NCBI GenBank assembly: GCA_016187335.1
Contig: JACPJW010000001.1
Location: 853,978-917,977 of the forward strand
DNA: 64,000 bases
Origin: Candidatus Aenigmatarchaeota archaeon
GTDB lineage: Archaea; Aenigmatarchaeota; Aenigmatarchaeia; GW2011-AR5
Direction: 5' to 3'
Below, in pieces: positions 15 to 52,906 of the stretch. Every line of letters starts with the position of its first letter. Within the stretch, counting starts at the first letter, position 1. The translations under genes were made by a program, and so were the position numbers. The notes under the pieces are model-generated. The model worked only from the letters and a program-made list of their open reading frames with translations, did no database searches and was not told the origin of the DNA.

Positions 15-467
15 TTATTTTACTATGCTTAGCCATACTACCGCACCTAAAATCAGCGTTGACGCTATTTCAAAATGCATCCTGTATTTGTCGGGAAGCA
101 TCCCCAAGGAAATCTCCTTTTTTGAGAAAGGATAGAAGGGCCTGCTTTTGCCCACCAGAAAATCGGCGGCGTAGTGGACAATAGCCGAAAGCGCTATGAC
201 CTTTGCCAGCGTGGCACCGGAGAAAAAAGCAAGCAGAGACGCGGCTGCCGAAAAGAGCGTTAATCCGTACAGTTCATGGAACCTTGACCTGGATTCGGAA
301 CCGAATTTCTTCCGCAGGACTTTTCTCCTTGTTTTTATTACATACGGGATGTGGTCAAGGTCAAGGATAACGGAAAACAGAAGGATGTAAACGGCGTAGT
401 TGTAGGCATTGCCTAAGGCGCCTTCAACAACAAGGTAGCTGAGAAAAAAATGAAGCAGCGTGTTCAT
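15..467 (-). CDS. membrane-bound metal-dependent hydrolase-like (DUF457-type) integral membrane protein
   Basis: 150 aa ORF with several hydrophobic segments and His/Asp-rich loops (LDLDHIPYV, IVHYAADF). Family assignment is from memory of motif style only. Confidence 0.4.
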   Translation of the reverse strand: MNTLLHFFLSYLVVEGALGNAYNYAVYILLFSVILDLDHIPYVIKTRRKVLRKKFGSESRSRFHELYGLTLFSAAASLLAFFSGATLAKVIALSAIVHYAADFLVGKSRPFYPFSKKEISLGMLPDKYRMHFEIASTLILGAVVWLSIVK

Positions 468-2722: not shown

Positions 2723-3025
2723 ATGCGCTCGCGCAGCAAGCCGGAATACCAGCTGAAGATAGCAAGGGAGCGGATACAGATACTGTTTGATGAAGCTGAG
2801 CATGCCGAAGACCCGAAGCTCGCGAAGCGGTACATCGAGCTGGCGCGAAAAATCGGCATGCGCTACAACGTCAGGATACCAAGGGACCTGAAAAGGAAAT
2901 ACTGCAGGCACTGCGGGGCATTTTTAAGGTACGGCGCCAACGCAAGACACAGCGTCAGGAAAGGCGTAGTAACTATTAAATGCTTTTCCTGTCAAAGTGA
3001 AATGCACTATCCGTACGGGAAGTAA
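2723..3025 (+). CDS. rnp4: RNase P protein component Rpp21/Rpr2 (zinc ribbon)
   Basis: 100 aa with a basic N-terminal helix (KRYIELARKIGMRYNVRIP) and C-terminal CxxC...CxxC (CRHCGAF...CFSCQ). Confidence 0.7.
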   Translation: MRSRSKPEYQLKIARERIQILFDEAEHAEDPKLAKRYIELARKIGMRYNVRIPRDLKRKYCRHCGAFLRYGANARHSVRKGVVTIKCFSCQSEMHYPYGK

Positions 3026-29916: not shown

Positions 29917-30306
29917 ATGGCAGGGAAAAAAAGAGCGAAAAAGGAGAAGAAGACAGCCAAGCAGGCGCCGCCAAAAGCTCCTTCCGTGGAATTCTGCAAG
30001 AAATGCGGCGCGATTCTTGTTCCGCAGAAAAAAAGAACAAACGTTGTCATGAAATGCCGCCATTGCGGCTACGAGCTGAAAAAAAATATCAGGAACCTGA
30101 AGATAGTTGAGGAGAAAAAGAAACCCGCCGGTATAATTGTCTTGGAAAAAGACGACACGCCCCTGCCGATGACAGTAAGGGAATGCCCGAAATGCGAAAA
30201 CCAGAAGGCATGGTACTGGATGCAGCAGACGCGCGCCGCTGATGAGCCGCCGACCCAGTTCTTCCGCTGCACCAGATGCAAGCATGTCTGGCGCGAGTAC
30301 AAGTAG
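29917..30306 (+). CDS. tfs: transcription factor S (TFIIS-type) / RNAP subunit M paralog
   Basis: N-terminal Zn ribbon (FCKKCGAIL...CRHCGY) and C-terminal TFIIS-type ribbon (CPKCENQKAWYWMQQTRAADEPPTQFFRCTRCKHVW, which includes the acidic insertion-hairpin DE). Start chosen at Met 29917. Confidence 0.8.
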   Translation: MAGKKRAKKEKKTAKQAPPKAPSVEFCKKCGAILVPQKKRTNVVMKCRHCGYELKKNIRNLKIVEEKKKPAGIIVLEKDDTPLPMTVRECPKCENQKAWYWMQQTRAADEPPTQFFRCTRCKHVWREYK

Positions 30307-30396
30307 ACCCTTTTTCTTTGAAAGAAAAACCGTCTACGGAAAAAGAACATATTAGTTTTCAATAAAAAGAAAAGCTACATTTTCCAAAAGAAAATA

Positions 30397-34121: not shown

Positions 34122-35259
34122 GAAAAAAGTGGCTTCATTTATCATAGCCATACTCATACTGTCAATTTTGGCGATAATCATATTGTCCGTGTCAATGGCA
34201 TGGTTCTTTTTCAAGTCGCCGCCAAAGACCGGCGGGATTTCCGAGAATGTCCTGAAATCTTCAATGAAAGGGATGATGGGCTACGCATCGCCTGATGACA
34301 TTCCAATTAGGACTCCGCATGACAGGACACCGTTAAGCTTTAATGAGAAAGACGGCGTCAAAGAATTCCGTCTTTCTGCGGAGCCTATAAGATGGGAATA
34401 CGCGAACGGCTATTACGTGACAGCATGGGGGTTCAACGGCCAGGTGCCGGGACCGGAGATACGCGTTTCAGAAGGCGACAGGGTGAGAATAATTTTCACG
34501 AATAACCTTCCAAAGGCAACAGCAGTCCACTGGCACGGCGTAAACGTCCCTAACGGCATGGATGGCGTTCCCGGCGTTACGCAGGAAGCTGTAAAGCCCA
34601 ATGAAACTTTCGTTTACGAATTCACAGCAGAACCAAAAGGCACAAGATACTACCATGCCCACGGCTCGTCGCACATGGACGAGGCCCAGCAGCTTGACAT
34701 GGGATTGTACGGCGCATTCATAATAGAGCCAAGCAACTTTTCAGAAAAGTTGCATCAAAACGGTAAATACGACAAGGAATTTACGCTGCTGCTTGACGAA
34801 TGGGAAATCATGCCCGATGGAACAAACGCTGCCATGCTGCCAGGAATGCATTCAATGGACCATAACGTTTTTACCATAAACGGAAGAGCTTTTCCCGACA
34901 CGGAGCCGCTCAATGTCGCGGAAGGAGATAAGGTTCTTGTGAGAATAATAAACGCCGGCTCGTCAACGGCACATCCCATGCACTTGCACGGGCATTCCTT
35001 CAAAATTGTTGCCGTTGACGGGAATCCCGTGCAGGCGGGGGCGCAGATTGTGAGGGACACCCTGCCTGTGAGCCCGGGAGAGCGATATGATATAGAAATC
35101 ACGGCCGGCAATCCCGGAACATGGATATTCCACTGCCACGAGCTTCATCATGCGGACGGCGGGATGATAATACCTTTTATGTATGAAGGGTATGATAACA
35201 TAAGCAGGCCGCCATCCCAAAAAGTGCCGGGCTTGGGGCACGAAATGCACGGAGGATAA
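34105..35259 (+). CDS. multicopper oxidase (two/three cupredoxin domains)
   Basis: HWHG (type 2/3 Cu site), HxH (HAHGSSH), C-terminal [12 protein letters not shown] (type 1 Cu Cys plus His pairs), and an N-terminal signal anchor. Overlaps the copA 3' end by 17 nt. Confidence 0.8.
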
Positions 35260-40292: not shown

Positions 40293-40360
40293 GAAACTTT
40301 TCCAAAAAGTTTCATCATTTGCGAAGAAACAAAGTTTCTTCGAAATCCCGAAGAACTTCG
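40293..40360. repeat. three consecutive hairpins immediately after the 40290 stop
   Basis: gaaactttt-cca-aaaagtttc (40293-40313), cgaagaaac-aaa-gtttcttcg (40322-40342), and cgaag-aa-cttcg (40349-40360). Confidence 0.55.
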
Positions 40361-44843: not shown

Positions 44844-45036
44844 TAACTTTGTGATTAAGGGTTTAAATTCCTGAAAACAAGAAGAGGATGATTATAGGGA
44901 AATGGGGATAAGAAGAAAATCTGTAATATTTTTAATTAAGGAAATGAGGGTACAAGCAGTTTGATAAATTATATAAAATTTGAAATAGTTTGTCAAACTG
45001 CTTGAAGGGAGAGAAACCGCAAGTTTCCCTTTTGAT

Positions 45037-45057
45037 GAAACTTTTCGGAAAAGTTTC
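45037..45057. repeat. B-type hairpin gaaacttttc-g-gaaaagtttc abutting the 5' end of tRNA-Cys
   Basis: Perfect 10-bp inverted repeat whose arms are identical to the hairpin at 40293-40313. Confidence 0.55.
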
Positions 45058-45225
45058 GCTGGGTTGGCAGATCGGCTATCTGCAAAGACCGTCGGAAAAA
45101 CGGTTGCGGATAACGCAAACCGAAGATGTGCCCGCCTGCAGAAACCCTTTTGCACATGTAAACGTGCAAAAGCGTTTACGGAAAGCAGCGAGCGGGATAG
45201 GGGGGTTCGACTCCCTCACCCAGCT
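45058..45225 (+). tRNA. tRNA-Cys(GCA) with two introns (non-canonical intron near position 26/27 and canonical 37/38 intron)
   Basis: Acceptor GCTGGGT/ACCCAGC (7/7 bp) and D-arm GCAG-ATCGGCTAT-CTGC (45067-45083). Exon 2 CCCGC-CTGCAG (45131-45141) gives the anticodon loop C-T-GCA-G. Exon 3 from 45191 (A38, then GCGGG pairing CCCGC), variable loop ATAG, T-arm GGGGG-TTCGACT-CCCTC, discriminator T. Introns about 45084-45130 and 45142-45190. The 5' half resembles known archaeal tRNA-Cys (GCCAGGGTGGCAGA...GGCTAT). Confidence 0.6.
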
Positions 45226-45291
45226 TTATAGAAAATTAAAAGTGGGTGAATAGTTTTTTATATTTATCTTTCTTACTACTCTGAAATAACT

Positions 45292-46395
45292 ATGAGAAAT
45301 CTTAATCCTGACTTTGATATAAAAGGTTCGTCGCCGGCAATAAATGGGGTAAAATTGCTGATTGAAACGTATGCGCCATGGGATATTTCGGTCCTAATAA
45401 CAGGAGAGAAGGGAACCGGAAAAGAACTTGTTGCGCGCCAGATGCATAATAGGTCAGGACGAAAAGGCAATTTTGTTGCTCAGAATTGCGGCGGCGTACC
45501 AGAGGGTCTCGCGCCTACGCTTTTTTACGGCCATAGAAAAGGTGCATTTACAGATGCCAGGGATGACAAACCCGGGCTATTCTTGCTCGCTGAAAACGGC
45601 ACGTTGTTTCTTGACGAAGCCGAAGCCATGCCTCTGTCAATTCAACCGGTATTACTAAGGCCGCTTGATGGTTACGGCATCAGGCCGATAGGCAGCACTG
45701 CAGAAATTTATCCTAATTTTCGTGTTGTTGCAGCCACAAATCAAGAGCTTACACCAGACGGTTTCAGGAGCGACCTTCTTGACCGGCTTGATGGTTTCAG
45801 AATTCATATGCCGCCGCTGCGCGAGATACGAGAGGATATCCCAGAGATAGTAGAATTTTACTTGGAACAGATGAGGCGTAATTACGGTAGGAGAAAACAA
45901 TTTACAAGTGACGCGCTTTCCTTGTTGAAAAATCATGACTTTCCCGGAAACACGCGCCAGCTTATAAATGTTGTAAAATACGCTTATTTTGGCTCGAATA
46001 TGCACGATTTTATAGGAGCCGACCTGGTAGAACGGAGGCTATTTGGGAAAACAGCTGTAGAAGTTCCTGAAAAAGATGCGCCAGCTTATGAACCCGGAAG
46101 AGTTGTACCTGTTACCGGCAACGGTGAAGTCCGGGATAGAATTGCTGCCATACAAAATCCGCGCGAAAGAGAAATAGTTGAGGCGCTTTTAAGGCATGGC
46201 GGAAGAATGAGAGATGTCGCAGCAGAAATGCATATTACGTATCAAGGATTGTACGGAAGAATAAGAGCCTTAGGTTATCCAGGAACGGAAGAATTATATG
46301 TAAAGCATGAAATACCGAATTACAGGACTAGAACATCCAAGGCTCCTCCAGGTGTGCGGGTTGAAGTGCGGCAAAGAAGCAGCCATGTTATGTAG
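45292..46395 (+). CDS. sigma54-interaction-domain AAA+ transcriptional activator (PspF-like bEBP lacking a sensor domain) with a C-terminal Fis-type HTH
   Basis: Walker A GEKGTGKE, GAFTGA-like loop KGAFTDA, Walker B LFLDEAEAM, R-finger RVVAATNQ, and the FRSDLLDRL...PPLREIREDI block. C-terminal HTH IVEALLRHGGRMRDVAAEMHITYQGLYGRI. Confidence 0.75.
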   Translation: MRNLNPDFDIKGSSPAINGVKLLIETYAPWDISVLITGEKGTGKELVARQMHNRSGRKGNFVAQNCGGVPEGLAPTLFYGHRKGAFTDARDDKPGLFLLAENGTLFLDEAEAMPLSIQPVLLRPLDGYGIRPIGSTAEIYPNFRVVAATNQELTPDGFRSDLLDRLDGFRIHMPPLREIREDIPEIVEFYLEQMRRNYGRRKQFTSDALSLLKNHDFPGNTRQLINVVKYAYFGSNMHDFIGADLVERRLFGKTAVEVPEKDAPAYEPGRVVPVTGNGEVRDRIAAIQNPREREIVEALLRHGGRMRDVAAEMHITYQGLYGRIRALGYPGTEELYVKHEIPNYRTRTSKAPPGVRVEVRQRSSHVM

Positions 46396-49747: not shown

Positions 49748-49844
49748 CAGAAAGCAAAGCTTTCTGGCAACTCAAGAAGCTTATGCTTCTTCGAGTTTTC
49801 CGTAGACGATTTTCGTTTTGATGCAACTTTTCTGAAAAGTTGCA
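49748..49844. repeat. hairpin cluster between convergent transporter and mscL genes: two A-type and one B-type
   Basis: cagaaagc-aaa-gctttctg (49748-49766), aagaagc-ttat-gcttctt (49774-49791), and tgcaactttt-ctg-aaaagttgca (49822-49844). A T-rich tract (tctatttcttttcatcttt) follows. Confidence 0.55.
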
Positions 49845-49850
49845 AAGGGT

Positions 49851-50147
49851 CTATTTCTTTTCATCTTTCGCGACCTTCTTCACGATAATGAAGACCACAA
49901 GCGCGATAATCAGGAAGTTTATCACTGCCGCAAGGAACGCGCCCCATCCGATGACAACAGGCCCTATGGACAGCTTTGCGGTCTGCCACTCCCCGCCGGG
50001 AATGAAAAAAGTTATCACGGGCATGATTACGTTGCTTACCAATGACTGCACCAGCGCCGTCAGGGCAAGCCCTATGATGAACGCCACTGCCAGTCCTACG
50101 ACTTTGTATTCCTGCAAAAATTCGCTGAACTCCTGCGCAAAGCCCAT
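49851..50147 (-). CDS. mscL: large-conductance mechanosensitive channel
   Basis: 98 aa. VVGLAVAFIIGLALTALVQSLVSNVIMPVI is the MscL TM1 signature, and the C-terminus is charged. Confidence 0.8.
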   Translation of the reverse strand: MGFAQEFSEFLQEYKVVGLAVAFIIGLALTALVQSLVSNVIMPVITFFIPGGEWQTAKLSIGPVVIGWGAFLAAVINFLIIALVVFIIVKKVAKDEKK

Positions 50148-52714: not shown

Positions 52715-52906
52715 GCGTCTGTAGTCTAAACAACTTTTCTTGGAAAGAAAAATTGTATCAAAAGAATCCAAGAAAGTTGGGATAACGGTTAGGACCTCAG
52801 CCTTCCATGAAAGGCTGTCAGAAGAAAATTTTAGAAAGAAGTTTTTGACCAAACTTTTTTCTAAAAAGTTTGGCTGATGATCCGGGTTCGAATCCCGGCG
52901 GACGCA
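52715..52906 (+). tRNA. tRNA-Gly(UCC) with two introns (D-loop intron and canonical 37/38 intron)
   Basis: Acceptor GCGTCTG/CGGACGC, TA, D-stem GTCT (52724-52727) pairing GGAC (52792-52795), and D-loop AAAC[intron about 52732-52785]CGGTTA. C26, anticodon stem TCAGC (52797-52801), loop C-T-TCC-A (52802-52807), intron 52808-52871, G38, stem GCTGA (52873-52877), variable TGAT, T-arm CCGGG-TTCGAAT-CCCGG, discriminator A. Matches the archaeal tRNA-Gly pattern GTAGTCTA..GGTTAGGAC...CTTCCA. Confidence 0.75.

Follow-up and report, generated by a model that had tools for sequence, protein, structure and literature searches.

We found that the locus at positions 45058-45225 on the plus strand of the window, by which we mean the whole stretch of 64,000 nucleotides that was analysed, reads with a probability of roughly 0.85 as a functional tRNA-Cys(GCA) gene carrying two protein-spliced introns of the BHB type, as judged from the sequence. 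The original prediction had proposed that a tRNA-Cys(GCA) is interrupted here by a canonical intron and a non-canonical one, and this was borne out by the cloverleaf of the spliced product, by the conservation of the exons in relatives and by the BHB cores present at both junctions. The borders that it had given to the non-canonical intron were replaced.

The acceptor 5' strand GCTGGGT, starting at 45058, pairs with the acceptor 3' strand ACCCAGC, and the latter is directly followed by the discriminator U73 at 45225, U73 being the usual discriminator in tRNA-Cys. The anticodon stem-loop is formed by CCCGC-CUGCAG (45131-45141) and A-GCGGG (45191-45196), with GCA held in the loop. Within the 3' exon, the A38, the GCGGG strand and the 4-nt variable loop were as predicted, while the T arm (GGGGG-TTCGACT-CCCTC), which had been described as perfect, contains one G.U pair. 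No CCA is encoded at the 3' end of this exon. Joining 45058-45077, 45126-45141 and 45191-45225 gave a 71-nt product, GCTGGGTTGGCAGATCGGCTATGTGCCCGCCTGCAGAGCGGGATAGGGGGGTTCGACTCCCTCACCCAGCT, which showed a cloverleaf with the GCA anticodon and U73 and was accepted by ARAGORN. The window encodes CysRS at 531-2036, so that the organism needs a tRNA-Cys; SRP54 and a PGF-pre-PGF protein, the latter an archaeal marker, are also encoded in it. Two proteins of the window are assigned at NCBI to a 'Candidatus Aenigmarchaeota archaeon'.

On the unspliced sequence, default ARAGORN called zero tRNAs across the window, and Rfam reported no tRNA at gathering scores in the window and none down to E = 10 in the surroundings of the locus. 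When introns were allowed, ARAGORN placed the ends of the gene on the raw sequence at exactly 45058 and 45225 and mis-assigned the middle; the resulting call, a tRNA-Pro(CGG) with a 75-nt intron, was rejected as wrong, its ends only being correct. In the genome collection the D-arm 19-mer gave 11 hits, all bacterial and none archaeal, which were judged by taxon alone to be chance matches, and of the 59 matches to ATGYRCCCGCCTGCAG in the viral collection 0 were tRNA-like. The interruption of the gene is all that speaks for group I or group II self-splicing introns, or for pieces joined in trans as in a split or permuted tRNA. The inserts of 48 and 49 nt are far too short for ribozyme introns, no intron family was matched by Rfam in the window at gathering scores, nor near the locus with the cutoff relaxed to E = 10, and the three exons follow one another colinearly on the same strand, all inside 168 nt; these explanations are thus extremely improbable.

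Table 1. Features of the tRNA-Cys locus and of a second tRNA gene in the window.
Feature	Position	Strand	Composition and remarks
Exon 1 (20 nt)	45058-45077	+	Acceptor 5' strand, U8, G9, D-stem GCAG, D-loop AUCGGCU; tRNA positions 1-21
Intron 1 (48 nt)	45078-45125	+	Non-canonical, at the D-loop/D-stem junction (~21/22); absent in relatives, BHB on the junction
Exon 2 (16 nt)	45126-45141	+	AUGUGCCCGCCUGCAG; D-stem AUGU, G26, CCCGC, nucleotides 32-37 including the GCA anticodon
Intron 2 (49 nt)	45142-45190	+	Canonical, 37/38; CUGC (45136-45139) with GCAG (45185-45188); 3' bulge CG/A (45189-45191), slash marking the cut
Exon 3 (35 nt)	45191-45225	+	A38, GCGGG, variable loop AUAG (4 nt), T arm, acceptor 3' strand, U73
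Intron 1 BHB, 5' half	45066-45083	+	Outer GGCAGA 45066-45071; central TCGG 45072-45075; bulge CU/A 45076-45078; inner UCUGC 45079-45083
Intron 1 BHB, 3' half	45115-45132	+	Inner GCAAA 45115-45119; central CCGA 45120-45123; bulge AG/A 45124-45126; outer UGUGCC 45127-45132
Copy of the repeated element	45141-45187	+	RCCC, T-rich/A-rich hairpin and GCGTYTACGGAAA; fills nearly all of intron 2; found with model R1
TATA-like box	44969-44976	.	TTATATAA; centre of a 26-nt inverted repeat (44953-45004); 82-89 nt upstream of the tRNA
Perfect 10-bp hairpin	45037-45057	.	GAAACTTTTC-G-GAAAAGTTTC; abuts the tRNA 5' end; repeated hairpin family
Trailer hairpin and T6	45216-45259	+	45216-45228 pairs with 45237-45249; T6 at 45254-45259
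tRNA-Gly(UCC)	52715-52906		T-arm scan, then ARAGORN after removal of the D-loop intron

Relatives of the gene were obtained from two sources. A metagenome scan with the 3' exon pattern returned mostly other tRNAs together with five tRNA-Cys genes (L083, L040, L056, L057 and L066, the last one a partial copy), and the redoxin gene upstream of the locus led to the syntenic contigs L194 and L195; six complete relatives (L194, L195, L083, L040, L056 and L057) were compared. The best relatives of the downstream sigma-54-type ATPase reached only about 49% identity and were bacterial, so it was useless as a synteny anchor; this gene was probably acquired horizontally. In L194 the redoxin is 78% identical, the MgtE-PhoU ... 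redoxin-DEAD helicase neighbourhood is common to the window, and the tRNA-Cys carries a single 65-nt intron at 37/38. In L195, an Aenigmarchaeota genome at NCBI, the redoxin is 72% identical and the 71-nt tRNA-Cys is intron-less, as it also is in L083. The Rfam tRNA model scored these two intron-less genes at 54.1 bits (L195) and 57.6 bits (L083), and missed every intron-containing relative. L040, L056 and L057 have only one intron, a long one at 37/38, so that intron 1 is absent in 6/6 relatives.

All six encode a 71-nt tRNA-Cys with a D-arm of the form GCAG/GCGG/TCAG - ANNGGYY - A(T/C)G(C/T) - R26. The 71-nt product of the window was identical to the spliced L194 tRNA-Cys at 71/71 positions, exon 1 showing no differences from that of L194, and it aligned without gaps to the other five relatives with 56-64/71 identities; exon 2 matched that of L056 (ATGTACCCGCCTGCAG) at 15/16 positions. 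The 40-nt flanks, compared with those of L194, matched at 8/40 and 10/40 positions, which is chance level. Exons that are identical between flanks at chance level point to strong selection on the exons, and at the level of sequence this conservation implies function.

The relatives also decided the borders of intron 1. Exon 1 had been predicted to end at 45083, with intron 1 at 45084-45130 and an 11-nt micro-exon at 45131-45141; the alignment and the BHB place the 48-nt intron upstream of this and give a middle exon of 16 nt. The middle exon had been regarded as unusually small, and at 16 nt it is comparable to the A21-G37 fragment of Methanopyrus kandleri pre-tRNA-Glu (PMC5829648). Of the two intron lengths predicted, about 46 and about 49 nt, the second was confirmed with its position and the first was not. 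As originally drawn, the splice 45058-45083 + 45131-45141 + 45191-45225 gives 72 nt and lacks nucleotide 26, and adding G45130 or A45084 gives 73 nt. ARAGORN accepted all these versions, so the finder cannot decide between the boundaries and the relatives are required.

The exon model that ends at 45083 (intron 1 at about 45084-45129/30, a middle exon of 11-12 nt, a product of 72-73 nt, a perfect D-stem GCAG/CUGC and a 9-nt D-loop) draws on several features of the sequence. CUGC at 45080-45083 is perfectly complementary to GCAG and this hairpin is present in the free fold, cuts after 45083 and 45129 would each fall 2 nt past a perfect 4-bp helix (AUCU/AGAU), its product too is accepted by ARAGORN, and the precursor folded with its helix forced is slightly more stable than with the BHB forced (-60.7 versus about -58 kcal/mol). 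However, alignment to the relatives showed that this model inserts 2 nt in the D-loop compared with all six, including the syntenic L194 with its otherwise identical exons. It also makes the presence of ATGTG, the ancestral D-stem strand, directly upstream of CCCGC a coincidence, it leaves the AUCU/AGAU helix with almost no flanking pairs (outer 1/6, inner 1/7), and its exact coordinates omit nucleotide 26, all of which makes it very unlikely. Two further candidates were rejected: cuts after 45083 and 45131, giving a 71-nt product, would produce a D-stem with a C.C mismatch and lack any 4-bp helix, and a nested 26-nt intron (45086-45111) has a strong inner helix, yet its product is not a tRNA.

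With the 48-nt intron, the dinucleotide AT is repeated at both borders, so that a shift of the DNA-level junction by as much as 2 nt leaves the product unchanged; the cuts after 45077 and after 45125 are set by the BHB geometry. The cut geometry was calibrated on the four 37/38 introns of the window, L040, L056 and L057, whose junctions are known from the intron-less homologues, and in each of them both strands of the CUGC/GCAG helix are followed, after 2 nt, by the 37/38 junction. The motif of intron 1 has a central helix TCGG/CCGA with 4/4 Watson-Crick pairs, an outer helix with 5/6 pairs, an inner helix with 4/5 pairs and two 3-nt bulges on opposite strands, as in the hBHBh' form; both flanking helices are mismatched beside the closing pair. 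When every position pair in 45050-45230 was scanned for BHB motifs, this junction ranked first, with 9/12 flanking pairs. When the insert was shuffled 200,000 times, 2.9% of the shuffles formed a perfect central helix at a junction that preserves the product and 0.11% also matched the observed flanking-pair count (P about 0.001). The free fold of the precursor (MFE) has -67.5 kcal/mol, with GCAGAU paired to AUCUGC of intron 1. Neither the BHB of intron 1 nor the AUCU/AGAU helix of the other model is part of this MFE fold, so fold energies cannot choose between the two candidates.

A dead gene, inactivated by the 48-bp insertion or by both insertions in a cell served by another tRNA-Cys, would be in keeping with the absence of a call by the standard finders, with a BHB that is not the most stable fold and with the 2-nt repeat flanking the insert, as after a transposon-like insertion. 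A pseudogene would drift, however, and the exons are 71/71 identical to those of L194 next to flanks at chance level; three Logan contigs, each from an independent sequencing run, carried the identical 168-nt gene, the BHB lies exactly where precise excision needs it, the insert has no terminal inverted repeats and the other tRNA of the window (Gly) is built alike. A dead gene is therefore very unlikely. The related idea of a pseudogene or remnant of a mobile-element attachment site, with exons complete and 100% conserved relative to L194, was rejected, there being no integrase among the genes neighbouring the tRNA-Cys (YHS, redoxin, sigma-54-type ATPase and GerE regulator), and a MITE as the source of intron 1 was ruled out by the same lack of inverted repeats.

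The second intron carries a relaxed motif. Its outer helix is the anticodon stem, and this stem, the CUGC/GCAG helix and the 3' bulge all form in the MFE fold. The 5' site, AG/A, falls in a 2x7 internal loop with no inner helix adjoining the 5' bulge, and the motif as modelled corresponds to the relaxed hBH/BHL form. The CUGC/GCAG helix was also found in L040, L056 and L057, and the 37/38 intron of L194 is without any central helix. Given the relaxed 5' side of intron 2 and this L194 intron, the endonuclease of the lineage probably tolerates relaxed motifs, and recognition for splicing may not need a strict BHB.

A second tRNA with two introns, tRNA-Gly(UCC), was found in the window. Its D-loop intron of 56 nt (52730-52785) has a BHB with a central helix GUCU/GGAU, two 3-nt bulges and a 7-bp inner helix, and ARAGORN placed a second intron of 64 nt near 38/39, for which no strict BHB was found. 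The orthologous tRNA-Gly of L194 has a D-loop intron at the same position with the same central helix, and the inner helix is fully compensated between the two (CAACUUU/AAAGUUG in the window, CAUCCUU/AAGGGUG in L194). Since this helix is kept through different sequences, D-loop BHB introns are maintained in the lineage.

In the upstream flank, the TTATATAA box is a possible bidirectional promoter shared by the tRNA on the plus strand and the YHS/redoxin genes on the minus strand. A/T-rich TATA-like boxes also lie 55-85 nt upstream of the tRNA-Cys in L194, L195, L083 and L057, and the tRNA-Cys leaders are long in relatives too. The hairpin that had been reported next to the 5' end of the gene is real, with 10 bp, and would fall within the 5' leader of the pre-tRNA. 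Its family has four copies in the window, with related copies at 34733, 40293 and 49818; read on the minus strand, it is upstream of the YHS gene and resembles a long-form element upstream of the YHS gene in L197. A C/D-box small RNA in the leader was considered and rejected, as UGAUGA is present but no D box is found at a suitable distance. Downstream, the trailer hairpin with T6 looks like a terminator-like 3' end, a role suggested by its form.

Intron 2 shares an 18-nt stretch with intergenic DNA of the relatives, and this stretch is part of a repeated element that consists, in order, of TAR, RCCC, a T-rich/A-rich hairpin and GCGTYTACGGAAA. A C-G pair shifts along the stem of the hairpin between copies, three of the five intergenic copies have their start at a called gene's stop codon, and an A-rich, TATA-like stretch follows most intergenic copies. 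The hairpin at the tRNA 5' end is a long form of the same family. A covariance model, R1, trained on three intergenic copies only and searched against 134 kb, matched the tRNA-Cys intron of L056 (37.5 bits, E 1.3e-7), intron 2 of the window tRNA-Cys (32.4 bits, E 3.7e-6), the long-form intergenic copies of L197 (28.6 bits, E 4.1e-5) and of the window at 49794-49853 (22.8 bits, E 0.0017), and the D-loop introns of tRNA-Gly in the window (20.1 bits, E 0.01) and in L194 (18.2 bits, E 0.03). Intron 1 of the tRNA-Cys showed a weak similarity to the box of the element, with P about 0.01-0.02 before multiple-test correction. BLAST of the introns against the other fetched loci gave nothing beyond this box. 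We tentatively consider that the tRNA introns of this lineage could be copies of a short terminator-like repeat that usually follows protein-coding genes, a doubtful but testable idea on the source of such introns which the intron-repeat match suggests. Were it to hold, it would provide direct evidence, at the level of sequence, for one of the routes of BHB-intron gain, the insertion of a terminator-like repeat able to fold into a cleavable motif, and the D-arm intron, as a recent gain, would then offer a snapshot of this process.

In the same gene neighbourhood, the tRNA-Cys has two introns in the window, one in L194 and none in L195, so that one gene is seen in three intron states with exons identical or nearly so. 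As the exons of the window and L194 are identical and intron 1 is present only in the window, the sequences indicate either a gain of the D-arm intron in the lineage of the window or its loss from every relative sampled. Between the window and L194 the introns at 37/38 are not alignable, and the intron of the more distant L056 has its beginning (AAACCCTTTT) and the box in common with intron 2 of the window.

We propose that the precursor would be transcribed from the A/T-rich promoter presumed upstream, through the leader that contains the hairpin. An archaeal splicing endonuclease, presumably EndA, would cut after 45077 and 45125, releasing the 48-nt intron, and after 45141 and 45190, releasing the 49-nt intron at 37/38, presumably in this order, each cut falling inside a 3-nt bulge 2 nt 3' of a 4-bp helix. 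The three exons would then be joined to the 71-nt tRNA by a ligase, probably of the RtcB type. RNase P and 3' processing would trim the leader and the trailer, and CCA would then be added, since none is encoded. The endonuclease and ligase steps rest on established archaeal tRNA splicing (PMC4090602, PMC5829648).

With this reading, tRNA-Cys and tRNA-Gly are restored to the gene set of a DPANN archaeon in which routine annotation would report both as missing, and this affects estimates of genome completeness and of decoding capacity. The case also indicates that boundaries read from the best-looking stem can err by several bases, and that orthologues decide.

For tRNA-Thr of Caldiarchaeum subterraneum, a D-arm intron at 24/25 has been described as a recent gain (PMC3293823), and intron transposition has been reported in Thermoproteales (Fujishima 2010, as cited in PMC4090602). 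Like these cases, the tRNA-Cys has a D-arm intron in one lineage that is missing in relatives with the same exons, and its introns have related sequences at other places in the genome. Unlike them, no integrase or large mobile element lies beside the gene, and the related sequences are terminator-like repeats after protein genes and not just tRNA introns. According to a published survey, the endonucleases of DPANN lineages carry an additional loop, disrupted tRNA genes are numerous in these lineages and the tRNA sets predicted for them are incomplete (PMC5829648), and ARMAN-2 combines non-canonical introns with an epsilon2 endonuclease (PMC3239211). The small-genome DPANN host, the relaxed splice motifs and the prediction-incomplete tRNA set resemble the disrupted tRNAs of Nanoarchaeum (split) and ARMAN-2; in contrast to the split tRNAs of Nanoarchaeum, the gene here is colinear and cis-spliced, being neither split nor permuted. 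The pre-tRNA-Glu of Methanopyrus kandleri has a D-loop intron and a 37/38 intron and yields the A21-G37 fragment (PMC5829648). With it and with the multi-intron tRNAs of Thermoproteales, the tRNA-Cys shares the combination of a 37/38 intron and a D-arm intron around a short middle exon, the junctions in 3-nt bulges beside a 4-bp helix and the fact that ordinary finders miss both. It differs from them in its Aenigmarchaeota (DPANN) host, in the Cys isoacceptor, in the intron position at ~21/22, in the imperfect flanking helices and in the relaxed type of the canonical intron. The two-intron tRNA-Cys is thus a further case within the known multi-intron archaeal tRNAs.

The window holds a second hidden tRNA gene, tRNA-Gly(UCC), at 52715-52906 (+), which was missed by both ARAGORN and Rfam and which, like the tRNA-Cys(GCA) gene, carries two introns. 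The D-loop intron has a good bulge-helix-bulge (BHB) motif, with a GUCU/GGAU central helix and an inner helix of 7 bp; the second intron yielded no strict BHB. The orthologue in the syntenic relative L194 (about 2745-2880, minus strand) contains the D-loop intron only, with the inner helix compensated with respect to the window.

Copies of a repeated element, composed in order of TAR, RCCC, a T-rich/A-rich hairpin and GCGTYTACGGAAA, were found in the window and in relatives. A model built from three intergenic copies matched tRNA introns as well. Of five intergenic copies, three start at a called gene's stop codon; a TATA-like A/T stretch follows most intergenic copies. The element could serve as a terminator and operator combined, or it may be a mobile repeat. 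The 'B-type hairpin' of the original prediction, at the 5' end of the tRNA-Cys gene, belongs to a family whose members are near-perfect hairpins of the form (T)TGATG-RAACTTTTC-NN-GAAAAGTTYC.

Features in the window, in L194 and in contigs of relatives (L197, L056)
Feature	Sequence	Position	Strand	Remark
tRNA-Gly(UCC) intron 1	window	52730-52785	+	D-loop, 56 nt, good BHB
tRNA-Gly(UCC) intron 2	window	about 52809-52872	+	about 64 nt, near position 38/39
Repeated element	window	30304-30345	+	
Repeated element	window	49794-49853	-	
Repeated element	window	45141-45187	+	
Repeated element	window	52727-52765	+	
Repeated element	L194	6098-6139	-	
Repeated element	L194	9735-9776	+	
Repeated element	L194	2833-2868	-	
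Repeated element	L197	5529-5586	-	
Repeated element	L056	2472-2523	-	
Hairpin family	window	34733-34758	-	apparently within multicopper-oxidase ORF
Hairpin family	window	40293-40318	-	at gene 3' end
Hairpin family	window	45032-45057	+	
Hairpin family	window	49818-49843	+	at gene 3' end

In the tRNA-Cys gene, a six-base near-repeat links the start of intron 1 (ATCTGC, 45078-45083) with that of exon 2 (ATGTGC, 45126-45131), giving a perfect pseudo-D-stem between pre-tRNA and intron 1. A second perfect helix of 4 bp, AUCU/AGAU (45078-45081 / 45124-45127), is compatible with the alternative junction of the original prediction. The near-repeat with its pseudo-D-stem and the second helix could be a trace of intron 1 insertion, or an alternative precursor fold.

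Among relatives, the contig L083 has an intron-less tRNA-Cys (481-551, +) about 0.8 kb upstream of a cysteinyl-tRNA synthetase gene (about 1380-2240), compared with 43 kb between the two genes in the window. On L056, which also carries a tRNA-Cys, Rfam matched the DUF3800-X small RNA family at 223-292 (+), with 48.7 bits (gathering score 38.2).

Beside the tRNA-Cys gene, this archaeal genome encodes an ATPase (45292-46395, +) with a sigma-54-interaction domain and without a receiver or sensor domain; the gene is missing from the corresponding position in L194 and in the Aenigmarchaeota relative L195. The nearest relatives of the protein, self excluded, are bacterial (37-49% identity), which suggests that the gene was acquired horizontally.
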